Assembly (NCBI GenBank): GCA_040376695.1
Contig: JBEIQD010000002.1
Location: forward strand, 14,633-78,632
DNA length: 64,000 nucleotides
Direction of reading: 5' to 3'
From: Candidatus Nomurabacteria bacterium
GTDB lineage: Bacteria; Patescibacteriota; Minisyncoccia; Phycocordibacterales; UBA5272
Shown: one piece after another, positions 14,081-56,283 of the stretch
Layout of the letters: every line of letters begins with the position of its first letter
Position numbering within the stretch: the stretch's first letter is position 1
Notes under the pieces: generated by a model
Told to the model about the DNA's origin: nothing
Databases searched by the model: none
What the model saw: the letters and a program-made list of their open reading frames with translations, nothing else
Made by a program: the position numbers and the translations under genes

Positions 14081-14959
14081 ATGGCGACAGAAACACGGTC
14101 TATAGGACCTGCAGCTAAAGACTTCATGCAAGCTGCACGAGCGCAAGCGGGAGGCCCTCCACCACCTGCCCCCAAAACACCACCTGCTTCATCTGGCAAC
14201 AGCGGAACAGGAGACGGTAACTCTGGCTCATCCGGAGGAACTGGTGGCGGGGGTGGAAAGAGTGGCGGGGGCGGTGAAAACCATCCTCCAAACCATGGAA
14301 AAAGTTCACAAGCCTCTGATGGCTTTAACCTGAAAATGGATGCTCGGCGATGGATTATTTTGCTCTTCATGGCCATTACCTCAGGCTGCATTGTGTACTA
14401 CACCATGTGGCGCACAACTCCTGCAGGGCAAAAAGTTCAAGCTCAAGAAAACAGCCTCGATGAACAGCGGATCAAACTTGCTCGAGACAAAGAACAAGTG
14501 AAGATGATGAGAATTGCAGCAAAAAGCGGTGCAAAGATGCCTGCGGTATCAAATGGGGCGTCAACATGTTTAACCCTCGCCGACTCTGCTGGAATTTCCC
14601 GCTCTACAGCCTTTGAGCTTTCCTTCGGACAGTGTGCCTCGTTTACAGCAACTGGAGCGCGGCAAACTTTTTGGGTTAACCTCAACAGCGCACCCAAAGA
14701 AATCAACGGCAAGGCGTCTTTCAACAACTTGCGCGAAGAACGAGCCGACGAGAAAATAGCCCGAAAGGAAAGGTGTCTCGCAAAAACCAATGACGCTGAA
14801 TTCTGTGAGAAGGAAATGCAAAGACAGCGAGGTGTACGCCTCGATGAAGGTTGTATTACCCAATCATCCCCTGACCTGTGTCTCGGTTACCTCAAAAACC
14901 GAACCAGCACCCCGCTCATCGTTCACACCGATGAGAGTATCAACATTGTCATGAACTGA
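14081..14959 (+). CDS. Hypothetical secreted or membrane protein with Gly/Pro-rich N-terminal region and Cys-rich C-terminal domain
   Basis: SD aaAGGAAGtgat. Low-complexity GGPPPPAPKTPP...GGTGGGGGKSGGGG, one TM helix, about 10 Cys in the C-terminal half. Local GC about 55%. Confidence 0.5.
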   Translation: MATETRSIGPAAKDFMQAARAQAGGPPPPAPKTPPASSGNSGTGDGNSGSSGGTGGGGGKSGGGGENHPPNHGKSSQASDGFNLKMDARRWIILLFMAITSGCIVYYTMWRTTPAGQKVQAQENSLDEQRIKLARDKEQVKMMRIAAKSGAKMPAVSNGASTCLTLADSAGISRSTAFELSFGQCASFTATGARQTFWVNLNSAPKEINGKASFNNLREERADEKIARKERCLAKTNDAEFCEKEMQRQRGVRLDEGCITQSSPDLCLGYLKNRTSTPLIVHTDESINIVMN

Positions 14960-14970
14960 AGGAGAAATCT

Positions 14971-15234
14971 ATGAGCGCACCCGAAGAAAAGAAAAAGATT
15001 ACTGCTGGCGAAATTTTTGGCTACGCTGTCCTAGGTGGACTCGGTGTCGGCCTCGGCTTTTACCTGTTGGCACTGTTCTTTGGTATGGGAGTCGAAGCGA
15101 TCGGTGTCGCCAAGCGCCGCTACCCTGAAATCATCATGGGGTTGATCATGCTTGTGTTGCTCGCAGCCTTTATGGGCGGCGGTGGCAAAAAAGCAGAAGG
15201 TGGTGGCGACAAAAAAGCAGACGCCAAGCACTGA
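14971..15234 (+). CDS. Small membrane protein (2 TM)
   Basis: SD GAAGGAGaaatct. 87 aa. GC-rich like the preceding gene. Confidence 0.45.
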   Translation: MSAPEEKKKITAGEIFGYAVLGGLGVGLGFYLLALFFGMGVEAIGVAKRRYPEIIMGLIMLVLLAAFMGGGGKKAEGGGDKKADAKH

Positions 15235-16800: not shown

Positions 16801-17052
16801 TTATTTAAACATTCCACCAAGCGCGTTGTTTAAAGCACTCAATATCCCTCCAACTGAAAGAATAATAAATAGTCCAACCATTCCCCACAGAAGATGACTT
16901 CTTCCAAAGGTTTGTTTTTCTGGATTGTTAAGATCAAGAACGTATTTTGCTACACCGTAGAGAAAGTAGAGAATGGCGACACCAACAGCAGCTTGGTAGA
17001 GTGGGCTGAAGAGTTCTGTAACGACGTTTGATAAAATTTGTTCTCCAGACAT
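16801..17052 (-). CDS. Small two-helix membrane protein, TrbC/VirB2-like paralog 1
   Basis: Shares the TM1 - NPE loop - TM2 (W.....WGI / GG) architecture with the next three genes. Start uncertain; 17052, 17091 and 17106 are all possible. Confidence 0.35.
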   Translation of the reverse strand: MSGEQILSNVVTELFSPLYQAAVGVAILYFLYGVAKYVLDLNNPEKQTFGRSHLLWGMVGLFIILSVGGILSALNNALGGMFK

Positions 17053-17165
17053 AGATAATATGATTGTTTGTAATTGTATATAAGTATACATGAGTATATA
17101 TAACAAAACACCCTCTTTCGAGGATGTTTTGTTTGTACAAAGAAAATCTGTAAAAAGTTCTGAGA

Positions 17166-17564
17166 TTAATTAGGTCGCGGAACTCCTGGGATTGGAATAT
17201 TTCCACCTTGTCCAACTCCTACGATAGAACCGAGAAGTCCGATAATACCCCAGATAGAAACCATCACGAACAGTGCAAGAATAGAGTATCCCATGCCCTT
17301 CAAGTTTTGATTCTTGTTCTCTGGTGAAGGATTGAAGATAAACTTAATAAGGTAAAAGAAGAACGCGAGCACAGCAAGCGTAACTGCAAACGGCACAAGA
17401 CGACTCATGATTTCCTGAGCGAGTGCAAGCAATTGGAGGAGTGCTCCACCATTTACCTGACCCTGCTGTGTTCCGATTCCAATTGTAATTTGAGCAAATG
17501 CAAGTGAAACACTTGTTGCTGTAACACCCACCGCCACAGAAATTCTTTGTAAAGCTTTTTTCAT
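17166..17564 (-). CDS. TrbC/VirB2-like small membrane protein, paralog 2 (signal peptide plus two TM helices)
   Basis: MKKALQRISVAVGVTATSVSLAFA signal, then FFFYLIKFIFNPSPENKNQNLKGMGYSILALFVMVSIWGIIG. Confidence 0.45.
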   Translation of the reverse strand: MKKALQRISVAVGVTATSVSLAFAQITIGIGTQQGQVNGGALLQLLALAQEIMSRLVPFAVTLAVLAFFFYLIKFIFNPSPENKNQNLKGMGYSILALFVMVSIWGIIGLLGSIVGVGQGGNIPIPGVPRPN

Positions 17565-17631
17565 ATTATTTATTGTATATAGTAAAGTATAGCGCCCCCT
17601 AGCTCCTTTGCAAGGAGCGTATTAACACTGG

Positions 17632-18306
17632 TTAATACACAGCAGGTGCAAAACAGTTCCCGTTGGAATCCCTCACCTCATATTCGTTAGGACAAGGCTG
17701 TGGAGCACTACTATTTGCGTAGCACCCAAGTGTTCCCTCATCATTCCTAGAACAGGTTGCAGAACCACTCCATCCTGGAATGGTACATGCCTGATTTTCA
17801 ATACAAGCACCACTCCCACTCTGTGAAGGCGAAGTTGGAATAGGAGTTGAATTACCTCCTGTTGGCAATCCTTGAGAACCAGAATTAGTTGGCGCTTTGC
17901 CGTTACCTAACTCAATCTGAGGAATGATAATAGTATTTTGTCCCTGGATACCAAATATTCTTTGAGCGTAATTAACAATTCCCCATACTGAGAACATTAC
18001 AAACAATGAGACAAGTCCCCAAACCATGAAACTCTTACCTTTAGTCATTACCTCCGGCTTTCCGTCGCGTGACCCCCATATAAACTGTACGATACCGTAG
18101 AAGAATGCAACCATCGCCGCTGTTGCAAAGAGTGTTGCAAGTGAACGAACAATTGTTTGCGTAAACGTAGTAATGATTCCACTGAATGTCTTAAATCCGT
18201 TGTTTATCTGTGTGGCCCCATCCTGAGCAAATACGAGTGTAGGAATGGAAACAAAGCTAACAATACAAATAAAGAGAAGGATATGGAGATAAGGAATCTT
18301 TTTCAT
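17632..18306 (-). CDS. TrbC/VirB2-like membrane protein, paralog 3, with Cys-rich C-terminal tail
   Basis: Start at MKKIPYL (18306) with signal peptide. AFFYGIVQFIWGSRDGKPEVMTKGKSFMVWGLVSLFVMFSVWGIV. C-terminus Cys/Gly/Ser-rich. Confidence 0.45.
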   Translation of the reverse strand: MKKIPYLHILLFICIVSFVSIPTLVFAQDGATQINNGFKTFSGIITTFTQTIVRSLATLFATAAMVAFFYGIVQFIWGSRDGKPEVMTKGKSFMVWGLVSLFVMFSVWGIVNYAQRIFGIQGQNTIIIPQIELGNGKAPTNSGSQGLPTGGNSTPIPTSPSQSGSGACIENQACTIPGWSGSATCSRNDEGTLGCYANSSAPQPCPNEYEVRDSNGNCFAPAVY

Positions 18307-18365
18307 GGCTGCGTATAAGTTAATAGTGTGTATAGTGTATCTTACATATTTTCCACCCACAAGGA

Positions 18366-19259
18366 TTATCTGCTCCCTCCTACCTGACATTTTCCATCTG
18401 TTCCTATCATGCCGTAGAAACCGTTAAGCTCACAAGAGGAGCCATATGCTTTGGGCTCTGGCTGTCCACGACCGTCCACCGTTCCTGTTTGGGTGGTGGT
18501 TTGCTTCTGTACATTTGTAGTCTGATTACTATTTGTAGGAACAATCTTCTCTGCTGTCGCACGGAAAGCAAGGAGAAACGCTTGAAGTGAAAACGCAACA
18601 ACGGTAATAACAAATGACCAGAGTAACCAATTTCGTGCAGTTTTAAGACCCTCTGGATTACCTTGTGAATAAATAAATTTAAATCCTGATGCCACCCACA
18701 TTACTATAAGTGCTGGATAAATGAAGAACCTCATTGCAAGATTCATTGCAGCCAAGATAAGATCGTACGCACTATTTGATCCGAGCGGATTAGGTAAGAG
18801 TGTTTCCTGTGCGTACGCAGTCTCTACAAAAGCACTCGAAAACATTTGAAGTAATTGCCCTACCCACGGCTGTGCCCCTAAATATTTAAGCCCTAGCAAG
18901 AAAATACCTCCAGCAACTGCAAAAATAATAAAGAAACCAATCACTGCATTAAATGCGTACTCTCCTGCTTTTTTAATAGCCATTACATCTCCTCGAGTAT
19001 AAGCAAAGAAAGAAGTTACTAAACGTATGCCGATAATAACAACCAACATTCCACTTCCAAGGAGTGCAAACATCGTAAGTAACTTCTGCCCTATTTCTTT
19101 TAAGTCCTGAGGAGTGCACACGTCCGCAGCAGTTGCTCCACACACACCGTCCCCTGCAATTGAAGGCGTTTGAGCCTGCACACCAGAAACAGAAAGAGTA
19201 ATCAATGCAGTCGCGAGAAACATTGATAGGAAAACTGTCTTCATGGTAGAGAATTTCAT
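18366..19259 (-). CDS. Membrane protein containing two tandem TrbC/VirB2-like modules, paralog 4
   Basis: Signal peptide then two repeats of the TM-loop-TM module (..FAYTRGD..; ..FIYSQGNPEGLKTARNWLLWSFV..). Confidence 0.45.
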   Translation of the reverse strand: MKFSTMKTVFLSMFLATALITLSVSGVQAQTPSIAGDGVCGATAADVCTPQDLKEIGQKLLTMFALLGSGMLVVIIGIRLVTSFFAYTRGDVMAIKKAGEYAFNAVIGFFIIFAVAGGIFLLGLKYLGAQPWVGQLLQMFSSAFVETAYAQETLLPNPLGSNSAYDLILAAMNLAMRFFIYPALIVMWVASGFKFIYSQGNPEGLKTARNWLLWSFVITVVAFSLQAFLLAFRATAEKIVPTNSNQTTNVQKQTTTQTGTVDGRGQPEPKAYGSSCELNGFYGMIGTDGKCQVGGSR

Positions 19260-19268
19260 GGCTAAGTA

Positions 19269-20567
19269 TTAAAGTGGAGTATACAGGTCTTGCAAACGAG
19301 ATACAAAGATAGCCGCAGCATCAGACACCCCCACTCTTCCACTTATAATGTCCGCAAACATAGTGGAAACAAGTGTTACTGATTCAATTGGGAAACTGTC
19401 ATACCAAGGTTTTGCAACCAACATACTTCGAGCTACCACGTCGGACAACCCTTCCGTACTTGAATATGCACGAAGTGCAGGAACAGTTCCCATAAGAGAT
19501 GCAATCGCTGGAGAAACACCAGCACCAGCAAACTCACCTTCAATAGTAAGAGCTGTTACAAGATTCTTACTTGTCTTAAGCGTACCAATTGCATACATCT
19601 GCCCTGTTGTTGAAAATGTATTATACCCTCGTGTTTGAGGAAGATATGACATTTCTAAATCTGCCTTTGGATTACGTGCACGCAGTGTAGCAAGCTCACT
19701 TGCTCGTCCAATATACATAGCAACTTTTTCTGCCACGAACTGATCTTCAGCGTTTCCACCATACTGACTCCATGTGTATGTATTTTTTGTTGGGTCTGAA
19801 AACTGGGTAAAGAATCGTGCAGCTGTTGCAAGTGGAAACACTTCACCATCCTGCGTAACTGGAGTATTCGCAGTGACACTTAGATACGGCTGACCATCCT
19901 CTTGATACTGCTTAAGTACAGGAGTTTGTCCAAGCTGTTGTACTGTAGCCATGAGAATTTCTTTTGCGTATGGTGTATTTGGAGCACCGAGAGAAATAGC
20001 GGATTCTACAAATTGACCACGGCTATCAAGAATAGTAAGAAGTGGAACCATGTTTACTAACTCATCCCAATACTGCGGAGGATTCACGAGGCCGTGTTTA
20101 GAAAATAGTGTACGGTTATAGAAAAGAACCAATGGATCAATAGACACCGGAAGTGCAAGCGCTCCTGTTGGAGTAAACAATACTGAAGCACCATCTACAT
20201 AAAGATCTTTATACTTCTTCTCAGATAATGACCCGATTGGAAATGGGTACAAACGCGTCTGATTTGCCAAGATCAGCTGATGAGGAACAATAATCATGTC
20301 TGGCCCTGTTCCGTTAGCTAAAGCTTCAAGTAACTTCTGACTAAATTGCGTTGCTGGAATTTCCGTATATCGTACTTGATATGTTTTAGCCTGCGGATTA
20401 AATTCCTGTACTATCTTATTCATTTGTACCTCGTCCACCGTTCCCCACAAAACAACCTCTCCTACTGGTTTATCTTTTGCATTTCCTAGAGGTATTTTCC
20501 CAGAAAATATTAATATAGAAAGCAGTGCTGCAAAAATTCCAGCGCCGAGAAGTATTGTACGTAACAT
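19269..20567 (-). CDS. Extracellular solute-binding protein (ABC transporter, sugar SBP family 1), membrane-anchored, orphan
   Basis: N-terminal TM anchor; VVLWGTVDE...FNPQ...V.Y..IP...F..KL..ALA.GTGPDMI pattern. No permease or ATPase nearby. Confidence 0.55.
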   Translation of the reverse strand: MLRTILLGAGIFAALLSILIFSGKIPLGNAKDKPVGEVVLWGTVDEVQMNKIVQEFNPQAKTYQVRYTEIPATQFSQKLLEALANGTGPDMIIVPHQLILANQTRLYPFPIGSLSEKKYKDLYVDGASVLFTPTGALALPVSIDPLVLFYNRTLFSKHGLVNPPQYWDELVNMVPLLTILDSRGQFVESAISLGAPNTPYAKEILMATVQQLGQTPVLKQYQEDGQPYLSVTANTPVTQDGEVFPLATAARFFTQFSDPTKNTYTWSQYGGNAEDQFVAEKVAMYIGRASELATLRARNPKADLEMSYLPQTRGYNTFSTTGQMYAIGTLKTSKNLVTALTIEGEFAGAGVSPAIASLMGTVPALRAYSSTEGLSDVVARSMLVAKPWYDSFPIESVTLVSTMFADIISGRVGVSDAAAIFVSRLQDLYTPL

Positions 20568-20642: not shown

Positions 20643-21164
20643 CTATGCAGACACTGAAATGAATGCGTAGTGATAATCCCCTGCAGGCAATCTTTTCTGC
20701 ATACGAAACCCATGTTTCAGGACAACTGTTTCTGCTTGTTCTTCCGTTACCACGTGATTACTGTGCGGTCCGATGCCAGCGTGCGATTGAGACCAATCCA
20801 CAACAAGCAGCATTCCTCCTGGTTTTACTATCTTTGCAACATAGGTAAGTGCCGCATCAATATCTTGTAGTTGAAAAAGTACATTAGAGAGCACAACAGC
20901 ATCTAAACTGTATGCGTCGATAGAAATTCCCTTTTCGATATCCGCCCAGAGAATTTCAACATTCAAAAGTTTCTGACGTTCAAGTGTACTTGCGAGTGTG
21001 TGCAACTGATCTTTGTGTACATCAACTGCATAGACCTGTCCCATATCTCCAACTTCTTTGGCGAGAGCGATAGTGTACGCTCCCGTTCCACAACCAATAT
21101 CAGCCACACGATCTCCTGGCTTCAAATATAATTCACGAACAAGATGGTCTGGGGTTAAAAACAT
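20643..21164 (-). CDS. Class I SAM-dependent methyltransferase
   Basis: VADIGCGTGAYTIALAK (motif I). TATACT 9 nt before the ATG. Confidence 0.75.
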   Translation of the reverse strand: MFLTPDHLVRELYLKPGDRVADIGCGTGAYTIALAKEVGDMGQVYAVDVHKDQLHTLASTLERQKLLNVEILWADIEKGISIDAYSLDAVVLSNVLFQLQDIDAALTYVAKIVKPGGMLLVVDWSQSHAGIGPHSNHVVTEEQAETVVLKHGFRMQKRLPAGDYHYAFISVSA

Positions 21165-21202
21165 ATACGATTAGTATACAGCAGTGAGTAGATGTTAAGA
21201 GT

Positions 21203-21241
21203 GGATATGAAAACGGCGCCTCAGGCGCCGTTTTCATATCC
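21203..21241 (-). terminator. Long hairpin terminator after gyrA
   Basis: GGATATGAAAACGGCGCCtcaGGCGCCGTTTTCATATCC. Confidence 0.5.
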
Positions 21242-21248
21242 ACATCTT

Positions 21249-28813: not shown

Positions 28814-29542
28814 ATGTTCACATCCTTCACGAATCAGATGGTTGAATCACTCTTGGATGTATCACAAAATCCAGTAGCGCTCGGAATCTTTGGTATCATC
28901 GCAATACTCATTCTCTTACTCGTTCTTGCTATCATGTTTCCTTTCTGGAGAAAGACACTCGTCACAGTAAAAATCCTTGAGGAAGACGAAAAACCTTCTT
29001 CACTCCTTGCGTGGGTTATTGGAATCGTTATTATTGTAAAAGTTACCCAGATCTTTATCGTTCAACCTTTTATTGTAGACGGTGGATCAATGCTCCCAAC
29101 ATTTCACAATAAAGAATTCTTACTTGTAGACAAGTTTTCTTACTTCGTTGGAAAGCCTGACCGTGGAGACGTTGCTATCTTTAAACTCTACGAAGGTGGA
29201 ACAAATCCTTATACAGGCAAACATCTGATTAAGCGCGTTATTGGGCTTCCAGGTGAGCGAGTTGTTGTTAAAAACGGTGTAACATACATCTTTAATAAAG
29301 AAAATCCACAAGGATTTGAATTAGACGAAAGTTTCATTCTCTATAAAGATATGACTAAAAATGTAGATGTGACGCTTGATGAACACCATTACTTTGTAAT
29401 GGGAGATAACCGAACGCAGAGTTATGACAGTAGAGATTGGGGAGCTCTCGATGAAAAAAATCTCAAAGGACAGGTTCTCTTTCGGATGTTTCCACTTGAA
29501 GTTGCGTCCTATGAGCCAGGACAACATATCTATACTAAATAA
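28814..29542 (+). CDS. lepB: Signal peptidase I
   Basis: GGSMLPTF (catalytic Ser box) and GDNRTQSYDSRDWG. TATACT 10 nt before the ATG. Confidence 0.85.
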   Translation: MFTSFTNQMVESLLDVSQNPVALGIFGIIAILILLLVLAIMFPFWRKTLVTVKILEEDEKPSSLLAWVIGIVIIVKVTQIFIVQPFIVDGGSMLPTFHNKEFLLVDKFSYFVGKPDRGDVAIFKLYEGGTNPYTGKHLIKRVIGLPGERVVVKNGVTYIFNKENPQGFELDESFILYKDMTKNVDVTLDEHHYFVMGDNRTQSYDSRDWGALDEKNLKGQVLFRMFPLEVASYEPGQHIYTK

Positions 29543-36735: not shown

Positions 36736-38256
36736 ATGAATGAAGCGTCTGAAATACAGAAAATTGCACAGTTTATTAAGCATATTCGTCAACAGCAAGG
36801 TATCACTCAAGAAGAATTTGCTAAAGCCTTAAAAACTACCCAAAGTGCAGTTGCTCGTATTGAAAGTGGTAACCAAAATATTACTATTGAACAACTCTCA
36901 AAAATCAGCGAAGTGCTTAAGCGGCCGATACTCTCGCTCAATGATACTATCGATTTTCAAGTAGAAGGAGAAAGGAAACTTTCTGGATCTATTGTCACCA
37001 ACACCTCAAAAAATGGTGCCATCAATATGATGGTCGCAGCTCTTGTAAACAACGGGACCACTGTTCTTCATGGTATCCCACATATTGAAGAGGTATATCG
37101 CTATAAAGAACTCTTGGAGAGTGTGGGTGTAAAGATCCGCTGGACCCACAATGATAGCGCTCTTGAAATTACTCCAGGTAAAAAACTATCCCTTACAAAA
37201 ATAGATAAAGAGGTTGCTGCACGCATTCGATCATTCACGTTTGCCGGAGCTTTTATTCACTATACCAATAGTTTTAACCTACCTCATTCCGGAGGATGCA
37301 AAATGGGAGAACGAACCGTTGCAAGCCACAAGTACGCCCTAGATTACTTAGGGGTAACCGTGGTTACGAAAGAAAACCATTACGTGGTTTCTCATAAGGA
37401 ACTTAAATCGGGGTCAACAATTCCCCTCTACGAAGCATCTGATACTGGCGCCATAACAGCCATTATTGCCGCTTCAAAAATTGAAGGAAAGACAACTATT
37501 AAATTTGCACCACCAAATTATCAAGTACAAGATGTTTGTTTTCTTCTAGAGCGATACGGAGTAAAAATAGATGGCATTGGGACTACGACACTTATTGTGC
37601 ATGGAAAAAAGAACATAGACGTGAATATCGAACATTACAATAGCGAGGACCCTATTGAGAGTATGTTCTTTATTGCTGCTGCGATTGTTACCAAATCAAC
37701 GCTCACTATTACACGTTGTCCAATCGATTTTCTTGAACTTGAGCTTGAAAAGTTAAAGCGAATGGGGCAAAAATATAAAATTTCCAAAGTGTACAAAGCA
37801 AAAAACGAAAGAACCTCTCTTGTAGATATTACTATCACTCCATCAAAGCTTATTGCCCCACATGAAAAGATAGCGGCCCAACCATACCCGGGAATTAATA
37901 ATGATAATTTACCTTTCTTTGTACCTATTTCACTCATGGCAGAAGGTCAAACCCTCATCCATGACTGGACATGGGAAAACAGAGCAATCTATTTTACAGA
38001 GCTTAACCGTCTTGGAGCTGACATTAAACTCCTAGACCCTCACCGAGCCCTTATAACAGGAAAGAATCGACTTCGAGGTGCACAGATTGTTTCACCTCCC
38101 GCACTTCGCCCGACAGCCATCATTCTTATTGCCATGCTTGCTGCCGAAGGAACATCCCTTCTTCGCAATGTGTATTCAATCAAACGAGGGTATGCTGATA
38201 TCGCTGAGCGCCTCAATTCTATTGGTGCAAAGATAACTGTTTTAAAAGGTATCTAA
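36736..38256 (+). CDS. murA: UDP-N-acetylglucosamine 1-carboxyvinyltransferase with N-terminal XRE-type HTH domain (fusion)
   Basis: Residues about 1-65 form an HTH_3 domain (QQGITQEEFAKALKTTQSAVARIESGNQNITIEQLSKISEVL). The remainder aligns along the full length of MurA (KNGAINMMVAALV...; PHSGGCKMGERTV with the catalytic Cys; C-terminal LRPTAIILIAMLAAEGTSLLRNVYSIKRGYADIAERLNSIGAKI). TATACT 8 nt before the ATG. Confidence 0.8.
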   Translation: MNEASEIQKIAQFIKHIRQQQGITQEEFAKALKTTQSAVARIESGNQNITIEQLSKISEVLKRPILSLNDTIDFQVEGERKLSGSIVTNTSKNGAINMMVAALVNNGTTVLHGIPHIEEVYRYKELLESVGVKIRWTHNDSALEITPGKKLSLTKIDKEVAARIRSFTFAGAFIHYTNSFNLPHSGGCKMGERTVASHKYALDYLGVTVVTKENHYVVSHKELKSGSTIPLYEASDTGAITAIIAASKIEGKTTIKFAPPNYQVQDVCFLLERYGVKIDGIGTTTLIVHGKKNIDVNIEHYNSEDPIESMFFIAAAIVTKSTLTITRCPIDFLELELEKLKRMGQKYKISKVYKAKNERTSLVDITITPSKLIAPHEKIAAQPYPGINNDNLPFFVPISLMAEGQTLIHDWTWENRAIYFTELNRLGADIKLLDPHRALITGKNRLRGAQIVSPPALRPTAIILIAMLAAEGTSLLRNVYSIKRGYADIAERLNSIGAKITVLKGI

Positions 38257-43019: not shown

Positions 43020-43251
43020 TCGCAAACCGTGGTGGTGAGCGTGGCATGCTCCAAAATAAGTGCCTTATGTGAGCGCGGTCGCTCACCGCAACGAATTGCG
43101 AATGAGCACCACCTCTCTAGTGTACAACCTCTGCTTTCTAGTTTCAAGGCTTAATTAAAAAACGTAAAGGGCCATCCGAAGATGACCCAATGCGCAGGCA
43201 TTCATTTATTTTGTGGGCACGCCAATTGGCGCTCACCCTATAATTGTACCC
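43020..43251 (-). other. GC-rich hairpin-dense 3' region downstream of the 43252 gene (structured RNA candidate, copy A)
   Basis: Contains a UUCG-tetraloop hairpin (GGGTCATCttcgGATGGCCC), GTGAGCG/CGCTCAC and GGTGGTG/CACCACC helices. Architecture parallels 56320-56542. Confidence 0.3.
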
Positions 43252-45465
43252 CTATTTTGCAGGACTCGCAAGAAGCTGCTTAATGTACGCATCCACTTGG
43301 GCTGTATACTCTGGGCTTGTTTGCTTAAGTTCATTCAAGAGCTGGATTGCAAGCGTTATCTGCTTGGTGCTCACTAAAGCACTCAGAATATCAGCATCAA
43401 ACGGCACAGTCTGTCCTTTTGCCGTAAGATATGCTCGTGCTTCACTCCATTTGTTTGCATACACTGAGGCAAGCAAATATATCTTTGCTGCATCCCCATA
43501 TGCTGGAGCACTATCGAACGTCTCTCGAGCAAGAGCATAAGCTTCATTTGTCTTCCCAGTAAGAAGATATGCTCTCACGAGATCAAATGACACTAGTTGC
43601 TTTTTAGGAGCAATCATATGTGCTTGAGTTAATACTTTTTCCGCAGAAACACCATCTCCAATACCGTTGTAAAACATTCCATAAATTGAAAGCATTCGTA
43701 CATCATTCTTGTGAGCCTCGTATGAATTTTCAATATCCTTACGAGCTCCTTCAATCATAGAATTAATTGCCTGCACTGACTTTAGCTTGTCTTCTTCTGG
43801 AACATCCTCTGGAATAGTAACCTGTGCAATTCTTACTGTTGTCTGAAGATATTGTTCACGAGCTTCTTCAGAACCTACTGTATGCAATGCAATTGCTTTC
43901 TCAAATGCCGCCTGTTGTACTTTTACAGCATCTGCAAATGACATTGTTTGAATAAGTCGATTAATATCTAAACCTTTAACAAGATTCTTATTCACCATGA
44001 GAGGTCTATACACAAGGACGTACATCGTAGCTATGAGAAGAATTCCAATCACGGGTAGATATAACATATTCATCTGATCATCACTCACCGCTTTACCTCC
44101 CTGAACTTCTCCACGAGCTCCCGTTTTAAATGCGATATACGCAAGCAAGAAGAAGAATAAGATATAGCTTATAAGGTTATCAAACACGAATATATTGTGA
44201 ACAAAATATCCAGCTAACGCGCCCGTGAGAATAGCTTTCTCTCTGAAAGGCATATCATTCTTTTTTCTCCACATAAGCCAAAGCGCTACAACGTAGAGTG
44301 AGAGATATGCAATCAAACCGAGAGCTCCCGCAGCAACCAACCAGTCGAAGAACACATTGTGTGATCGATCGTACCATGATTCAAGATTCCACATTTTCTC
44401 TGGAAGAAACTTACTTGCATAAATATAACTGAAATTATCCTGTCCATATCCAAGTATTGGTTTTTCCTTAAATGCTTCATAGCTAATTTTCCAGATAGAC
44501 AAACGACTCATCCCTGTTAAATCTGTTGGGGAAATACTTGCGAAACGAGCAAGTGTTGGTGATGATTGTATAAATGAAGAATCTTTAAATGCAAAGACAG
44601 AACCAACAATAACTACGGCGGCTATCATAGTTCCAACAAGAACTCTTCTAGCTTTCCCTTTTTCAGCTAATGCAATAAGCCCGAGTGTCATAAAACCACC
44701 AACCAGAAGTCCGATTTGTGTCCCTCGGGTTCCGGTGTAGAAAAGCGCAATGAGGTTAAGTACTATGAGTGTCGGATAGAGCCAAGTCTTCTTTCCACCT
44801 TTCTCTTCTGACCAACGCAAAGCAAGAATGAAAATAAACATCAAACAGTAGATAGCAAAGTACGCAGAGTTTCCAAGTGTCGCATCTAGTCGATTTTCAC
44901 TCATATGAATTGGGAACGCTGCTGAAAACTTTGCAGCAACTCCTGGAAGGAGCTGTGAGAATATATACCCACTTGCTCCAAGTAATTGTCCGTACCCGAA
45001 TACAAGCACTGCGATATTTGAGGCGATGAGAGCCTTAAACATTTTTCCGTATTCCGCAGTTGTGCGAAGCATGGCTGAAAGTACCACAAAGTAAGCAAAG
45101 AGATGAAGGTGCCCAACAAATCCTTCCATGCGCTCAAAGTTACTCCAGATACTCTTAAACGAATCAACTCCAAAGATATCTGCAAGGAGGAGAATTGCCA
45201 TAAAAACAGCGTACGCAATAAGAAGTGGTGACTTTCGAATATTCAAACGATAACTTGCATCTTTAAGAGCAAGGATTACCCACCCGAAGAATGCTATTTC
45301 AACCAAGAACCTAAACACCATATTCTTACCGGAAATAAATGGGAAATACATACCGGATGTTCCTCGATTAAGAAGATCCAATGAATGCCCACTGGCCACA
45401 TAGAGCGCGACAAACGGAATAATCAAAAGACACCCCCACACCACTTTCTTCAAAATACTTTGCAT
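43252..45465 (-). CDS. O-antigen ligase-like (Wzy_C) polytopic membrane protein with C-terminal TPR repeats
   Basis: 737 aa, more than 10 TM helices with a GTRGTQIGLLVG motif, followed by a soluble TPR-like helical repeat domain. Confidence 0.45.
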   Translation of the reverse strand: MQSILKKVVWGCLLIIPFVALYVASGHSLDLLNRGTSGMYFPFISGKNMVFRFLVEIAFFGWVILALKDASYRLNIRKSPLLIAYAVFMAILLLADIFGVDSFKSIWSNFERMEGFVGHLHLFAYFVVLSAMLRTTAEYGKMFKALIASNIAVLVFGYGQLLGASGYIFSQLLPGVAAKFSAAFPIHMSENRLDATLGNSAYFAIYCLMFIFILALRWSEEKGGKKTWLYPTLIVLNLIALFYTGTRGTQIGLLVGGFMTLGLIALAEKGKARRVLVGTMIAAVVIVGSVFAFKDSSFIQSSPTLARFASISPTDLTGMSRLSIWKISYEAFKEKPILGYGQDNFSYIYASKFLPEKMWNLESWYDRSHNVFFDWLVAAGALGLIAYLSLYVVALWLMWRKKNDMPFREKAILTGALAGYFVHNIFVFDNLISYILFFFLLAYIAFKTGARGEVQGGKAVSDDQMNMLYLPVIGILLIATMYVLVYRPLMVNKNLVKGLDINRLIQTMSFADAVKVQQAAFEKAIALHTVGSEEAREQYLQTTVRIAQVTIPEDVPEEDKLKSVQAINSMIEGARKDIENSYEAHKNDVRMLSIYGMFYNGIGDGVSAEKVLTQAHMIAPKKQLVSFDLVRAYLLTGKTNEAYALARETFDSAPAYGDAAKIYLLASVYANKWSEARAYLTAKGQTVPFDADILSALVSTKQITLAIQLLNELKQTSPEYTAQVDAYIKQLLASPAK

Positions 45466-45564
45466 ACTAAATAATTATTAACTCACCTACTATCTGAATA
45501 ATAGGTAAAGTGTAGCACGACAAAAGCCTTAGTATCGTTGTTGACAGAGGTTGTTTTATGTTGC

Positions 45565-46437
45565 TTACAAAGCTTTCTTTCCAATCAAAAGATGCATATC
45601 TCCAAGCTTATTTTTCCAAAGGTTATATGTTTCTTTATTGTAATTTCTCCTGTACAAAAGATAGTCTTCTTCTTCAACTGGAATAATGTTGTGCTCGGAA
45701 AGTTCGCTACGAATAGGGCCCCATTCTATATGATCATCCTTAAACACATGTATATCCCCTTCTCGTTGATACTTTGGATTACTAAACATTCTAATACCTC
45801 TATCTATGTAGTTTGTTAATACAAAATATTTTTTAAAATCTACAGTTGATGCACTCTTCATGTCTGACTGAAAATGTTCATACTCATTTCCTTTCCAAAT
45901 AAAACTTGAAGCCTCATGATCGATATATAAAACTCCTCCTGGTTTCAATACGCGTGCAAATTCTTTCATAAGACAAAGATAGTCGGGGACATGGTGGAGT
46001 ACAGAATACATGGCAACCACATCTACGCTTGCATCTTCTATATTCACTAAATCAGTCCCGTTTAGTTGAACAGTGATTACTTTCTGTTTATAGCTTCGAG
46101 AAGCGACCAAATCTAAAAACCCAGTTGAAACGTCCGCTGCAATTACCTCACAACCAAGTTCTGTTAAGTGGTGAGTAAGATTTCCTGCACCGCAACCAAA
46201 ATCAAGAGCTACGAGTGGAGAGCTTTTTGTTTCAACGTGTGATAAAGCTTTTTCCAGACCCTGCCTAAGACGAGTCTGTTCTACTTCATTATAAATCTCA
46301 CCGTGCAGTGCCTCGTATTTTTTGGCAATTTTGTTATGAACAGCGATATTATGCTCAAGTTGACTTTTCCCCATAGTAAAGGAAATTATACCACGGTGGT
46401 ATAATGGGTGCATAAACCCTATGATTCCAAAAATCAT
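45565..46437 (-). CDS. Class I SAM-dependent methyltransferase
   Basis: VALDFGCGAGNLTHHLTELGCEVIAADVS. Confidence 0.7.
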   Translation of the reverse strand: MIFGIIGFMHPLYHRGIISFTMGKSQLEHNIAVHNKIAKKYEALHGEIYNEVEQTRLRQGLEKALSHVETKSSPLVALDFGCGAGNLTHHLTELGCEVIAADVSTGFLDLVASRSYKQKVITVQLNGTDLVNIEDASVDVVAMYSVLHHVPDYLCLMKEFARVLKPGGVLYIDHEASSFIWKGNEYEHFQSDMKSASTVDFKKYFVLTNYIDRGIRMFSNPKYQREGDIHVFKDDHIEWGPIRSELSEHNIIPVEEEDYLLYRRNYNKETYNLWKNKLGDMHLLIGKKAL

Positions 46438-47119
46438 CCACTACTGCTGGTTTGGTAACAACGAAAAAAGTGATGAGATTATTGACTGCATTGAAAGTTG
46501 GAAAAAAACATGTCCCGACTTTGAAATAAAAGAATGGAATGAAATTAATTTTCCGTTTGAAAATTTCCCGTTTGCTGCTCGTATGTATAATGAAAAAAGA
46601 TGGGCTTTCGTTGCAGATTATGCCCGTCTTCATATTCTAGAATCAGAGGGTGGATTTTATTTAGATACCGACATGCTACTACTCCAATCCCTCTCCCCTC
46701 TTACTGAAAGCTCGTGCGTGCTTGGAGAAGAAGCTCCTGGCACCATTAGCGCAGGCATGATTGGCTCTGTTGCTCACCATCCTTTTATTACGCAATGTCG
46801 TGATTTTTATGACACCCATGTTGAAGAATCCATCACCATCCCCCGTGTTCTTTCTCAAATATACGAAAACTATGCAGACAAGAGTGCCCTCGTCGTGTAT
46901 CCTCAAAAAGTTTTCTACCCATTCGACAGTGAACATATCAATGAATACAAAGGACAAGATCTTGGACCTGAAGTTATCGGGGTTCACTTATGGCATTACT
47001 CTTGGGGCCATCCGCTTAATAAGTTTTTTAAAAAAATTGGAATTTATGGCTTTGGAAAACAAGTAGTTGAGTTCCTTGGTATCAAACCAATCCTTAAAAA
47101 ACTTTTAGGATTTATCTAG
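46421..47119 (+). CDS. Glycosyltransferase with DXD sugar-binding motif (GT32 / capsule-synthesis-like)
   Basis: IPKIIHYCWFGNNEKSDEI... YLDTDM. Confidence 0.55.
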   Translation: MIPKIIHYCWFGNNEKSDEIIDCIESWKKTCPDFEIKEWNEINFPFENFPFAARMYNEKRWAFVADYARLHILESEGGFYLDTDMLLLQSLSPLTESSCVLGEEAPGTISAGMIGSVAHHPFITQCRDFYDTHVEESITIPRVLSQIYENYADKSALVVYPQKVFYPFDSEHINEYKGQDLGPEVIGVHLWHYSWGHPLNKFFKKIGIYGFGKQVVEFLGIKPILKKLLGFI

Positions 47120-47124
47120 CTTCT

Positions 47125-47889
47125 ATGCGATTTAGTATTATAACTCCAACACACAAGCGCTCCGACAAACTTTTTCGAGCTGTACAATCAGTACTTACAC
47201 AAACATACCAGGACTGGGAGATGATTATTGTTAATGATTCACCGAACGATGAAACCTACAGAACTTTTGCTTCATCAATTAACGACCCGAGAATTCACTA
47301 CCACACAAACCGAACCAACAGCGGCGTAAATTTTACACGTAATACAGCCCTTGATAAGGTTTCATCAGAATCTGACTGGATTATCTTTTTAGATGATGAT
47401 GACTATTTCGCACCCGACACTCTTTTATCTTTACATGAGCTCATTCTTGATCACCCTCATAAAAATTGGTTCATTACAAACAGAGCCCATAAAAATGGCA
47501 CCTCACTCACACAGATTAAAAAATCCGACACTTCGTATTCATACATACGAGACTACCTTCTATTGAAACGATGTAAAGGAGACGTAACTCATACCATTAA
47601 CACTTCAGCTATTCATCTTGTTCGTTTTCCTATACACGTAAAGCAAGGAGAAGAGTGGCTCTTCTTCTATCAGTTAGGACTTACAGAGAAGATGTTTTAC
47701 CACATTCACAACAGCACTCTCACTGACGGATACGACGCACGCAATGGCTTAAATTTTAGAAAGCGAACTCGTGGAGAAAAGTTTGAAACAATCTCTATTC
47801 TATTCTACGAAGGAATACGTCTTGGGATTGCTTACCATCCAACATTCCTTCTCTATATTGCTATACGTCTTATAAGGATTGTTATTTAA
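47125..47889 (+). CDS. Glycosyltransferase family 2
   Basis: FSIITPTHKRSDKLFRAVQSVLTQTYQDWEMIIVNDSPND. Confidence 0.75.
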   Translation: MRFSIITPTHKRSDKLFRAVQSVLTQTYQDWEMIIVNDSPNDETYRTFASSINDPRIHYHTNRTNSGVNFTRNTALDKVSSESDWIIFLDDDDYFAPDTLLSLHELILDHPHKNWFITNRAHKNGTSLTQIKKSDTSYSYIRDYLLLKRCKGDVTHTINTSAIHLVRFPIHVKQGEEWLFFYQLGLTEKMFYHIHNSTLTDGYDARNGLNFRKRTRGEKFETISILFYEGIRLGIAYHPTFLLYIAIRLIRIVI

Positions 47890-49075
47890 AGGCCCGCAAC
47901 ATCCCAACTGAAGAAATTAGTCGAGCGGCAAGTAAACCAATAACCGCCCCCGTCACTCCATAATTAATACTTCCGACTGTTACTCCAACAAGGATAAGCG
48001 CCAGCAACACCACATTGTAAATAATAACGTGTCTTGTTTTCTTCTGTAATTGGTATTCATACATTGAAATAAAAACAACTGAAGAAAAGAAGCTTAGAGA
48101 ATACACAATAGAGAGAAAAACTACAGAAACATACTGAGGGAAAAATAGTTTATATAATAAAGGAGCAAAGATTGCATAGACAAGAAAAAGTCCGAACGAA
48201 TACAGAAACACTTTTCTGAAAGAAACTTTATCTCGATAATTGTTTTCTGATGAATCTATTAATATATATTTCCATATAAGAATGCGTAAAACTTCCCTTA
48301 TTTGATCAACAAAAAGAGTGGCAAAAATATAGAAAGAAAGACCGGCACCGCCAAGAAAATGAAAAACTATCATCTTGTCCAAAGACTGAGCCAAAGCCTC
48401 AAAGGAATTAGACAAAGTAAGTTTAAAAGAATACTTTTCCACATTCTCTGTTTCAGTAGCCTCTCTTGTTTGAGAGGCTACATACGCAACTCCTATAAGT
48501 CTAGGGATCCAAGTGCTGACGATATTGGCTAAGAAAGCAATAACGATACTCTGTGTGAAATATACAGCAAGTATGACACTCACACTTCCTAAGATGGCAG
48601 AAAATAAATCTATATAAAAGTTTAATCTAACCTTTTTCTTTCCATATAAAAACGCAACGTAAGAAGTTAAGGTTTCAGAAACTGCTACAAAAGGAGCGTA
48701 TAGAGCAAACAATAGTGAGAGTTGAGTATTTCCTTGTAGATAATAATATGCTGCAATCGATAAAAAAAACAAAACACCCAGAAAACCATATCTCATTCTC
48801 ATCTTTAAAACTGAAAAGAAGGTAGAGTCTTTACCCCCCTGAATAGCCTGCGTTAGTGGCAAATGAGATCCTGAAAGAGTGAAAAAGGAAGATAGTATGA
48901 TCCAAGCGAGAACATATCTATATACACCATACTCTTCGGGGGCAAATAACCTGCTCAACAAAACAGCATTCAAAAAAGAGAAGAAACTGGCGATGAACAT
49001 TGAAGCCACAGGCCAAAAACTACCATCTTCTTGGAAATGAGTTTTAGAAAATAGTAGTGCTAAAATTTTTTTCAT
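47882..49075 (-). CDS. Polysaccharide biosynthesis / oligosaccharide flippase (Wzx-like) membrane protein
   Basis: 397 aa, about 12 TM helices. Glycan-locus context. Confidence 0.45.
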   Translation of the reverse strand: MKKILALLFSKTHFQEDGSFWPVASMFIASFFSFLNAVLLSRLFAPEEYGVYRYVLAWIILSSFFTLSGSHLPLTQAIQGGKDSTFFSVLKMRMRYGFLGVLFFLSIAAYYYLQGNTQLSLLFALYAPFVAVSETLTSYVAFLYGKKKVRLNFYIDLFSAILGSVSVILAVYFTQSIVIAFLANIVSTWIPRLIGVAYVASQTREATETENVEKYSFKLTLSNSFEALAQSLDKMIVFHFLGGAGLSFYIFATLFVDQIREVLRILIWKYILIDSSENNYRDKVSFRKVFLYSFGLFLVYAIFAPLLYKLFFPQYVSVVFLSIVYSLSFFSSVVFISMYEYQLQKKTRHVIIYNVVLLALILVGVTVGSINYGVTGAVIGLLAARLISSVGMLRAFK

Positions 49076-49078
49076 AGT

Positions 49079-50110
49079 TTATTTCTTTGAAAGGTTCTTC
49101 ACTGCACCGTAAGCTTCCTGTGGAGTGATAAGGTACATAGACTCAAAAAATGTACCGTCTTCGTATTCTCTCTTTTTCTTAAAAAGACTAGCCCCACTTT
49201 CATCATACTCATGACAAAGACGAATTACTGTATCACCATATGGTTCTGGGTTCCATTCATAATCAGTAAAGATATCAAAACACACTGTTTCCTTTTGGAG
49301 AAAAAGAGCCATCCACAAGAGTCCTGTATCCATAGTGCAAAAAACGTCTGAACTTTTTATATACCCCATAAGTACGTCTGGTTTTAAGAACTGGCATATA
49401 ATCTGCACCCTAGGAATAGACGCAAGTTCCTCCATCTCCGAGCTAGAGAGATACCATTCCCTTTCTTTGGGTGTGTATGTTATCAATACATCTTGATTAA
49501 CCGTTAAGAGTTTGACAAGCTCTATCAATTTTTTTGGTGGATACGACCTTTCTCGTATTGAAGCAACAGGATGAATGTGTATATAGTTTTTCTTTAAGGG
49601 TGGCTTAACCTGAAAAGACAGTACGGGGAAATTTTTAGCCTCTACAGGTAGATTACTCGAGATGATTTGATTAGCTCGCACATTACGCTTCCATATCATT
49701 TCTTTTTCATCACGAGGAATATAATAAATATTCTTGGAAAGCAACCTCCTGTCTTTTGCGTAGAGTAAAACTCTACCCCCAAACAAAGCGAGGACATTGT
49801 AAAGTCCTAGACTCATTAAACGATAATGTTTTACATCAAAAGCATTCACAACCCAAACAGAGTTAAAAAATGCTCTGTAAACGATGCTGGTCCCCTTAAT
49901 ATAAAAATGTATTCCGGGAGCACTCACAAGCTTAGTTTCCTGTAAATTACTACCATGAATAAGTTCATTAAATAATGTATAATTCTTTCTAGTAACTAGG
50001 ATAATTTTAAAATCTCCAGATAACTCTAAGCGCTTAGCAAAATCAAGCTGAAATAAAAATTCACCTAATCCGCCGTAACTAAATATGTAACAGGTATCCT
50101 TTAATTTCAT
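49079..50110 (-). CDS. Glycosyltransferase family 9-like (heptosyltransferase fold)
   Basis: N-terminal FSYGGLGEFLFQLDFAKRL and C-terminal SDVFCTMDTGLLWMALFLQKETVCFD resemble GT9 signatures (GALGD..; GNDSGPMHLAAA). Confidence 0.4.
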   Translation of the reverse strand: MKLKDTCYIFSYGGLGEFLFQLDFAKRLELSGDFKIILVTRKNYTLFNELIHGSNLQETKLVSAPGIHFYIKGTSIVYRAFFNSVWVVNAFDVKHYRLMSLGLYNVLALFGGRVLLYAKDRRLLSKNIYYIPRDEKEMIWKRNVRANQIISSNLPVEAKNFPVLSFQVKPPLKKNYIHIHPVASIRERSYPPKKLIELVKLLTVNQDVLITYTPKEREWYLSSSEMEELASIPRVQIICQFLKPDVLMGYIKSSDVFCTMDTGLLWMALFLQKETVCFDIFTDYEWNPEPYGDTVIRLCHEYDESGASLFKKKREYEDGTFFESMYLITPQEAYGAVKNLSKK

Positions 50111-50996
50111 GAAAAAAGAAGTAAAAAAATATATATACGCCTACTTACCTGACTCCTTTGGAGCTTCCATTGTAGCATGTTATCGATTCTTTAGATTCGG
50201 CATAATTAAAGGAATTGAGAAGCTGTATATGAATTTTAGCTTTACATCACCAAAAATTATTCAGCTTAAAAATTCAACTCTTCAGCTCTATATAGACCCT
50301 AAAAATGGAGCAACTGATCAGACCGTTTTCCTTCATAGCTCAAGGGATGATGACGTAATAGAGCTAATGAAAGAGCATATTCACGAGGGTGATCATTTTG
50401 TAGACATAGGTGCAAATATTGGTTACGAAACTGTGTACGGAGCTTCGTTCGTAGGTAAATCAGGATTAGTAACTGCTTTTGAGCCTCTTGAACACCTAGC
50501 AAACCAGCTTCAGAAAAATGCATCGATCAATCAATTACGTAACGTAAGGCTTGTAAGAAAAGCTTTAGGAAATAGAGAAGGGCAACACACAATCTATTTA
50601 CACGCCCATGATGCTGGTTCATCTTCACTTATTAACGAAGAAAATAGTAGCTCAAGAATAACCATAGACGTAATTCGTTTAGATGATTTACCTATGCAGA
50701 AAATTGATTTTATTAAAATAGATGTTGAAGGTTTTGAACCTGAAGTATTCTTGGGAGCTCAGAAAACAATACTTAAAGATAAGCCAAAAATTGTGTTTGA
50801 ATTCCAGCCTCACCTCTATGATAAAAATAAAACCTTATCCGGTGAACAACTGTTAGAACTTTTACATACCACCTTTGGTTACTCCCTTTCCCAAATGTTA
50901 CCAACTGGCACAGAAACTTTTCCTGCCACATCATTTAAACGGGCAACAGAGATACTTCGAGCTGAAAAAACTCTTGTTAATATTTTTGCCCATTAA
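50109..50996 (+). CDS. FkbM-family methyltransferase
   Basis: FVDIGANIGYETVY ... FIKIDVEGFEPEVFLGAQ. Confidence 0.7.
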   Translation: MKKEVKKYIYAYLPDSFGASIVACYRFFRFGIIKGIEKLYMNFSFTSPKIIQLKNSTLQLYIDPKNGATDQTVFLHSSRDDDVIELMKEHIHEGDHFVDIGANIGYETVYGASFVGKSGLVTAFEPLEHLANQLQKNASINQLRNVRLVRKALGNREGQHTIYLHAHDAGSSSLINEENSSSRITIDVIRLDDLPMQKIDFIKIDVEGFEPEVFLGAQKTILKDKPKIVFEFQPHLYDKNKTLSGEQLLELLHTTFGYSLSQMLPTGTETFPATSFKRATEILRAEKTLVNIFAH

Positions 50997-52102: not shown

Positions 52103-52141
52103 ATAACCATTGTAACATAAGGTATACTTAGACGAATACTC

Positions 52142-56239: not shown

Positions 56240-56283
56240 AATAAATAGTATACAGGTAATACCATAGGGGTGACAGTGGATGT

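Follow-up and report, generated by a model that had tools for sequence, protein, structure and literature searches.

Bacteria of the candidate phyla radiation (CPR; Patescibacteria) depend on host cells, and in one genetically tractable species a type IV secretion system (T4SS), including its pilin array, is essential. The question here is what is built from four consecutive genes on the minus strand of a Candidatus Nomurabacteria contig, at 16801-19259 of the 64-kb window analysed (the window being the whole stretch of DNA), which a sequence-only reading had taken for a tandem array of TrbC/VirB2-like small membrane proteins. We find that all four products belong to the pilin-like family PF18895 (T4SS_pilin), that their genes stand in a conserved order directly behind a gene for a membrane-anchored solute-binding protein (SBP), and that, judged by sequence comparison, the four genes form one copy of a locus conserved across a broad Paceibacteria clade. 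The reading that we prefer, with a probability of roughly 0.55, is that a T4SS of the VirB4 type, encoded elsewhere, assembles PF18895 hairpins into a pilus-like fibre of mixed subunits, with pilin tails and the SBP binding the host or its glycans.

The open reading frames (ORFs) of the array are listed, in succession, at 16801-17106, 17166-17564, 17632-18390 and 18366-19259, and we refer to their products as p1 to p4, p1 being encoded by the array's last gene. It is likely that p1 starts at ATG 17052 (16801-17052, 83 amino acids), because a TATACT -10-like box at -36/-46 of this codon lies within the longer TTG-initiated ORF. The start of p3 is likely ATG 18306 (MKKIPYL), which gives a protein of 224 amino acids encoded at 17632-18306. 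By hydropathy, each module has two segments of transmembrane (TM) length, and p4 (297 amino acids) has four, that is, two modules. Signal-like N-terminal segments end in AFA↓Q in p2, VFA↓Q in p3 and VQA↓Q in p4, and p1, a pilin-like hairpin, has only two hydrophobic segments and no signal-like N-terminus. In p2 (132 amino acids) the signal peptide (SLAFA↓Q) is followed by an amphipathic helix, two TM helices and a short Pro/Gly-rich C-terminus. The ORF list, the hydropathy and the PF18895 matches given below bear out the earlier description of four co-directional paralogs with a shared two-helix architecture, three of them with signal peptides. The motifs named in that description proved less regular: NPE or PE is found in the loops of p1, p2 (SPE), p3 (GKPE) and module B of p4 (NPE), without being uniform, and the WGI motif of the second TM helix is confined to p2 and p3. 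The gene said to carry the module twice is that of p4, and the one said to have a Cys-rich C-terminal tail is that of p3, with six Cys (residues 168-218); p4 also has two Cys pairs, previously unmentioned, one close to the mature N-terminus (40, 48) and one in the tail (276, 291). Mutual identity of the five modules in the four genes is 23-28%.

In the AlphaFold model of p3, helices at residues 41-81 and 84-117 form the pilin hairpin, a disordered Ser/Pro/Gly linker (131-163) has a predicted local distance difference test score (pLDDT) below 50, and from about residue 170 to 224 the six-Cys tail is modelled as a beta-rich mini-domain, with beta strands at pLDDT 80-88. The model of p4 shows two helical hairpins at 50-126 and 164-239 (pLDDT >90), an inter-hairpin linker at pLDDT <50 and a small C-terminal beta element. 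The number of Cys in the tail is even in 78 of 79 p3 homologues, and the inter-helix loops hold two to four basic residues. One member of a related array (L152:7034-8074) consists of a pilin hairpin and two C-terminal PG_binding_1 domains, which shows that the hairpin can anchor or scaffold extracellular binding domains. Because of the basic loops, the even Cys counts and this peptidoglycan-binding C-terminus, the array proteins fit a predicted topology in which both termini lie outside the cell and the tails are displayed.

PF18895 matched all four proteins. Against its gathering score of 26.6 bits, p1 (31.4 bits, E = 2e-7) and p3 (30.6 bits, E = 3.7e-7) lie above, and p4 (24.3 bits, E = 3.4e-5, the match falling on module A) and p2 (23.8 bits, E = 4.9e-5) just below. 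Because four adjacent genes all match the one family, the resemblance is more than chance, and the profile searches, set beforehand as a possible refutation, assigned none of the proteins to an unrelated family. All 19 aligned relatives match PF18895 as well (best E = 1.4e-14), and 16 of the 19 match NCBIfam NF045849, a pilin-like conjugal transfer protein of Mycoplasma integrative and conjugative elements (ICEs), with a best E of 2.9e-10. The array's own p1, p2 and p4 match this second model at about 3e-4 and some 20 bits, under its 40-bit equivalog cut-off. At the level of sequence, NF045849 ties the family to monoderm conjugation systems independently of the Pfam name. Searched against 1.84 billion proteins, a profile built from the five modules retrieved 8,859 cluster representatives with E<=1e-3.

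With TrbC/VirB2 (PF04956; A. tumefaciens VirB2, RP4 TrbC) the array proteins share a collinear plan of long signal peptide ending A-x-A↓Q, amphipathic helix, two TM helices and short cytoplasmic loop, and both ends are expected outside the cell in either case. The virB2 gene, however, normally occurs once, with virB3 and virB4 after it, and the array has neither this arrangement nor significant sequence similarity. PF04956 matched none of the four array proteins at E<=1 and one of the 19 relatives (E = 0.005). Comparison by hhalign of alignment A4 with six VirB2/TrbC proteins from plasmid records gave a probability of 20% in global and 36% in local mode, the alignment being collinear. PDB profile searches (A1, A4) returned no VirB2 or TraA and only chance-level matches to ATP synthase subunit c, FliL and an immunity protein, and Foldseek with the array models found nothing significant. 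The label TrbC/VirB2-like thus stands for architecture and family name (PF18895) and falls for demonstrable homology to PF04956; we use 'VirB2-like' for architecture and family label, with descent unproven.

The gene that adjoins p4 encodes a divergent family-1 (sugar-type) SBP at 19269-20567 on the minus strand (SBP_bac_1 62.3 bits, SBP_bac_8 59.4 bits). It has an N-terminal TM segment (residues 1-29) and no lipobox Cys, and its nearest PDB relatives are sugar SBPs (E = 2e-6). Described earlier as an orphan immediately downstream, it does adjoin the array and is membrane-anchored; given the strand, though, it lies transcriptionally upstream, 5' of p4 with a 9-nt gap, and it is a conserved leader of such arrays. 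A metagenome scan seeded with p2-like pilins (alignment A5) yielded 80 related loci with 10-kb flanks, 40 of which had at least 1.5 kb 5' of the first pilin gene. In 38 of these 40 an SBP gene lies directly upstream on the same strand, mostly at gaps of -4 to +26 nt and frequently with a 4-nt overlap, and in 38 of 40 the next gene after the SBP gene is pilin-like. Across the related loci GyrA identity drops to about 57-70% and that of the SBP to 27-35%. No BPD_transp or ABC_tran gene, for an ABC permease or ATPase, occurs in the 64-kb window, and an SBP-pilin association is nowhere mentioned in the literature searched. A small class-I S-adenosylmethionine methyltransferase (20643-21164, minus strand; Pfam methyltransferase families) is encoded in the interval from gyrA to the SBP gene. 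In about 28-30 related loci a gene for it likewise lies upstream of that for the SBP; it shares the synteny of the locus, a functional link being unproven.

Loci compared by GlyRS put the window in the class Paceibacteria (Parcubacteria), with 78% identity to the best match. The layout gyrA, methyltransferase, SBP, pilin array and glyS is shared by loci L001, L002, L081-L089 and L176. Elsewhere the genes 3' of the arrays vary (glyS, IF-2, RbfA, aminotransferase) and none belongs to a T4SS. At four loci a polytopic protein of 326-593 amino acids with 5-6 TM segments is encoded convergently, directly after the last pilin gene (L115:2815-3864, L120:10605-11750, L147:10647-11627 and L157:7877-9658, all minus strand); the four share no BLAST similarity with each other and, considered as VirB6 candidates, were set aside as they had no Pfam match. 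Related arrays contain 3-7 genes in a consistent order: first a p4a-like gene, marked by its Cys pair, then a p4b-like gene, in which an NPLG motif follows the signal peptide, then one or more p3-like genes, a p2-like gene and a small p1-like gene. The penultimate gene is p2-like in 32 of 45 arrays and the last best matches p1 in 27 of 45. The p1-like orthologues without signal peptide measure 73-143 amino acids (median 89).

Comparison with these loci also accounts for the double module of p4. In distant loci the first two genes are separate, each with its own signal peptide; the sub-clade of the window, in which glyS also lies downstream, has them joined. The gene at 18366-19259 is a fusion of the array's first two genes, p4a-like (N-terminal Cys pair) and p4b-like (NPLG motif). 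The p4 orthologue at L166 gives two domain matches to a profile built without p4. An exact-sequence look-up of full-length p4 returned no match, and P0110, a shorter form 100% identical to p4, was found only on a 3.8-kb contig. Between the two modules of p4, residues 148-150 form an A-Y-A motif followed by Q (18810-18818, minus strand), a candidate signal-peptidase I site. In 52 homologues down to 37% identity, A148 is kept in 51, Y149 in 48 and A150 in all 52, with Q or A next. This A-Y-A aligns with the signal-peptide ends of unfused p4b-like genes and, in the AlphaFold model, sits in the low-confidence linker (pLDDT <50), where it is presumably exposed. The hydrophobic core of the linker is weakened, with a Kyte-Doolittle mean of about 0.9-1.4 versus 2.1 for the N-terminal signal peptide. 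We regard A-Y-A↓Q as a candidate cleavage site inherited from the signal peptide of the ancestral second gene; that it was kept suggests p4 to be a polyprotein, which signal peptidase I would cut. The LepB-type signal peptidase I at 28814-29542 on the plus strand (Peptidase_S26, 131 bits) is a candidate both for removing the signal peptides of the pilins and for making the internal cut proposed for p4; a homologue of it lies within the same extended syntenic block in related loci (cluster c12).

Longer concatenations exist in the family. In P0163, P0174, P0178, P0183, P0194 and P0225 the PF18895 module is repeated 3-10 times, in proteins of up to 1147 amino acids with about 20 TM helices. Signal-peptidase sites were considered for their linkers and rejected, the linkers being short and lacking a consistent A-x-A motif.

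These features allow us to propose a mechanism. Each product would form a helical hairpin, in which an amphipathic helix at the N-terminus precedes two TM helices joined by a short basic loop on the cytoplasmic side, both ends being outside. The hairpins would be inserted by Sec or YidC and trimmed by signal peptidase; p2, p3 and p4 would lose cleavable signal peptides, and the short acidic N-tail of p1 would presumably be translocated without one. p4 would probably be cut at the retained A-Y-A↓Q to give two hairpins, and p3 and the relative's peptidoglycan-binding variant would expose their disulfide-rich or binding domains on the outside of the cell. If the essential pilin array of Southlakia epibionticum is taken as the analogue, a T4SS of the VirB4 type, encoded elsewhere, would then take hairpins from the membrane pool and build a heteromeric fibre, and the SBP and the pilin tails would act as binding modules for host contact or for capture of host-derived glycans. 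The pairing of an SBP with the array, with no ABC permease nearby, points to binding or uptake of host glycans as a testable function.

Divergent arrays of VirB2-like pilins are known from Patescibacteria (PMC12102498, PMC10633639, PMC12857230). Using PF18895 and related profiles, Quinonero-Coronel et al. (2025; PMC12102498) found VirB2-like pilins in 1,948 VirB4-containing assemblies, with pilin genes near virB4 (within about 20 coding sequences) in 1,135 of them, and catalogued 441 pilin arrays, which comprise 2-11 genes and average 25% identity. Wang et al. (2023; PMC10633639) found the pilin series within the T4SS cluster of S. epibionticum to be essential, and Kuroda et al. (2024) reported T4SS pilins among the highest-expressed unknown genes in Paceibacterales cultures. 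According to a 2025 review, the T4SS of Patescibacteria is the only Gram-positive-type T4SS with putative pili (PMC12857230). Arrays of this kind, such as that of S. epibionticum ML1 (SEML1_0006-0019, six pilins) and the 441 catalogued, resemble the array of the window in their PF18895 members, their tandem co-directional genes, their signal peptides and two TM helices, their mutual identity of about 25%, their chromosomal location and the lack of a relaxase nearby. The window's array differs in lying outside a T4SS cluster, in being led by an SBP gene next to gyrA, in having no virB4 within the 64 kb (nor do related arrays within 10 kb), and in including a fused double pilin and a terminal member without signal peptide; the literature searched showed none of these features. 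The Mbov_0395/MMCAP2_0565 family of Mycoplasma ICEs (NF045849) likewise consists of small two-TM proteins, from monoderm, MPF_FATA-type conjugation, encoded by single genes beside a VirB4-like ATPase on a mobile element rather than by a chromosomal array. The pilin of the archaeal Ced conjugation/DNA-import system (Aeropyrum pernix, PDB 8dfu) is also among the closest known systems. The core of our finding has therefore already been described for Patescibacteria, and what it adds is modest: an SBP gene at the head of the array, a fixed gene order and a fused pilin that retains a cleavage motif.

Several points weigh against a T4SS-assembled fibre and must be set beside this evidence. Profile searches of the annotated ORFs in the window (which flank the array with about 17 and about 40 genes, respectively, on its two sides) found no match to VirB4, VirB6, TrsD or PrgI-type proteins, in agreement with the earlier remark that VirB4 and VirB6 are not in the window, the rest of which holds housekeeping genes (glyS, gyrA, gapA, pentose-phosphate genes, ftsA, ftsZ and signal peptidase I) and a polysaccharide-synthesis cluster. 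In about 40 related loci there was also no VirB4-like ORF (at least 550 amino acids and a Walker A motif) within 10 kb of the array, the few ORFs of this size and motif that were checked encoding housekeeping proteins. The relatives' assemblies are absent from the published T4SS table. Because no T4SS core gene lies near the related arrays, dependence on a T4SS is argued here by analogy. Direct homology to proteobacterial VirB2/TrbC is not demonstrable from the sequences, no pilus has yet been observed experimentally for any Patescibacteria T4SS (PMC12857230), and polypeptides of up to 10 concatenated modules are awkward to square with a simple pilus subunit. The 80 related loci are moreover orthologous loci picked by p2 similarity and no unbiased sample of the family, and, as the whole region from gyrA to the SBP gene is syntenic, adjacency of the SBP could partly reflect general synteny. 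The hairpins could instead make up a T4SS-independent envelope device associated with the SBP, as an oligomer or scaffold of the 'bindosome' kind or as an uptake channel replacing the missing ABC permease. This would suit the position of the SBP gene, which in 38 of 40 loci directly precedes the array and often overlaps it by 4 nt, and the lack of ABC permease and ATPase genes, as of VirB4, in the window and near related arrays; that distinct types of paralogue follow each other in a fixed order suggests a hetero-oligomer of defined make-up, and fusions of 2-10 hairpins exist in the family. In the Sulfolobus bindosome, SBPs are assembled with small pilin-like Bas proteins. We nevertheless consider such a device possible but doubtful: elsewhere in the phylum the same family lies within T4SS clusters, near virB4; its sequences resemble a conjugation-associated pilin-like family of Mycoplasma ICEs; no known transporter is made of such hairpins; and VirB4 is reported in 2417 of 3035 Patescibacteria genomes (about 80%), which makes a T4SS encoded elsewhere likely. 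Spanning both possibilities is a broader proposal that we put forward tentatively, below even odds: that PF18895 pilins and a dedicated anchored sugar-type SBP form, in a large Paceibacteria clade, a distinct surface apparatus of fixed composition, encoded apart from T4SS genes and partly polyprotein-derived, which captures or takes up host-derived glycans. Such an apparatus might be either a specialised T4SS pilus that works with a binding protein or a bindosome-like scaffold independent of any T4SS and, if real, would link the essential pilin arrays of CPR bacteria to nutrient acquisition.

The paralogues might instead be interchangeable variants of one major pilin, serving antigenic or host-range variation as proposed for the VirB2 arrays of Bartonella or Anaplasma and suggested for Patescibacteria (PMC12102498). 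Their low mutual identity (23-28%) and the change in array size between lineages, from 3 to 7 genes, would agree with this, as would the 82% identity of p4 between close strains, with variation at the mature N-terminus of module A and in the C-terminal tail. The same strains, however, are 94-99% identical in p1, p2 and p3, as they are in housekeeping neighbours, which fits distinct, non-redundant subunits, and each type keeps its position and its features (Cys pair, NPLG, tail, absence of signal peptide) while GyrA falls to about 60%. Because of this identity pattern and the positional orthology we favour distinct subunits and hold antigenic variants to be improbable; the fixed paralogue order and the fused pilin likewise argue for a defined heteromeric structure. 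That the four are unrelated small membrane proteins, holin-like or immunity proteins, with the pilin label a database artefact, is barely credible. The fold is generic, and weak matches were seen to Phage_holin_3_6, FixQ and Yip1 in Pfam and to ATP synthase subunit c and an immunity protein in the PDB profile searches, but these matches are all sub-threshold and differ from paralogue to paralogue, whereas PF18895 and NF045849 recur consistently among the relatives (19/19 and 16/19), and signal peptides with extracellular disulfide or peptidoglycan-binding tails are a misfit for holins. A further possibility is that the P-loop ATPase encoded at 54485-56239 (minus strand), 35 kb from the array, is the coupling protein of the same secretion system and supplies substrates to a channel built with these pilins. 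The earlier description of this protein as a soluble type IV coupling protein (T4CP)-like ATPase of the VirD4/TraD/TrwB superfamily was upheld. Its motifs GKTGMGKS, VDEFQNF and LTVAHQ lie at residues 55, 306 and 331 of the long ORF; its scores pass the Pfam cut-offs for TrwB_AAD_bind (45.4 bits, cut-off 20.5), T4SS-DNA_transf (28.1, cut-off 20.1) and TraG-D_C (25.2, cut-off 22); and it has no TM segment, as no 19-residue window exceeds a Kyte-Doolittle value of 1.13. Among solved structures TrwB and DotL are closest to it, and some Gram-positive systems are known to have soluble T4CPs. With VirD4/TraD/TrwB the protein shares Walker A and B, the TrwB all-alpha/nucleotide-binding domain and the TraG-D_C region; unlike them it has no N-terminal TM anchor, ends in a highly charged tail of about 150 amino acids rich in Arg, Glu, Gln and Asp, and is not encoded beside virB4, a relaxase or pilins. 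It falls far short of the NCBIfam equivalog cut-offs, the best model (NF045973, CD1115 VirD4-like) scoring 56 bits against a cut-off of 250 and the TraD models 42-52 bits against cut-offs of 366-647. None of the 80 related array loci has a homologue of it, and its immediate neighbour, 3 nt after the ATPase gene, encodes a secreted protein with Lamin-tail and PKD domains (53153-54481, minus strand). In the literature, T4CP homologues number about two per Patescibacteria genome and lie near virB4 in only 148 of 5713 cases, and the S. epibionticum homologue is non-essential, whereas its T4SS genes are essential; the window's ATPase matches these dispersed, possibly exapted homologues. We conclude that it is not linked to the array and that a role as coupling protein of the same system is unlikely.

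The window also offers evidence on how these genes are transcribed. A -10-like box, TATA[CA]T (mostly G/C-TATACT), lies within 60 nt 5' of 20 of 58 genes, versus about 1.8 expected. The boxes stand 12-46 nt before start codons (for example at 17586-17591, 19283-19288, 21178-21183 and 56252-56257), a spacing that implies very short 5' leaders, and are carried by the genes for p1, p2, p4, the SBP, the methyltransferase, gyrA and the T4CP-like protein. A scan of the window for consensus promoters and terminators gave chance-level results and was less informative than this genome-specific motif. A strong G+C-rich hairpin, GGATATGAAAACGGCGCC…GGCGCCGTTTTCATATCC, is found at 21165-21248, after gyrA and before the promoter box of the methyltransferase gene, and similar hairpins follow p3 and p2; the hairpins suggest that the array genes can be transcribed separately.

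Three further observations concern other parts of the window. Between rpmG and glyS, at 14081-15234 on the plus strand, two small membrane or low-complexity proteins of 292 and 87 amino acids are 46% and 35.5% identical to those of a sister strain, in which the flanking genes are 97-99% identical; neither protein of this strain-level hypervariable spot matched a Pfam or NCBIfam family. A surface-polysaccharide cluster at about 43250-53170 encodes a Wzy_C/O-antigen-ligase-like protein with TPR, glycosyltransferases, a flippase, an FkbM methyltransferase and an acyltransferase. Its G+C content, 0.34-0.35 at 48-52 kb versus about 0.41 elsewhere, may reflect horizontal acquisition. Finally, the gene at 36736-38256 (plus strand) encodes an unusual regulator-enzyme fusion of 506 amino acids, in which an N-terminal XRE-type HTH_3 domain is joined to an EPSP-synthase-fold (MurA/AroA family) domain.

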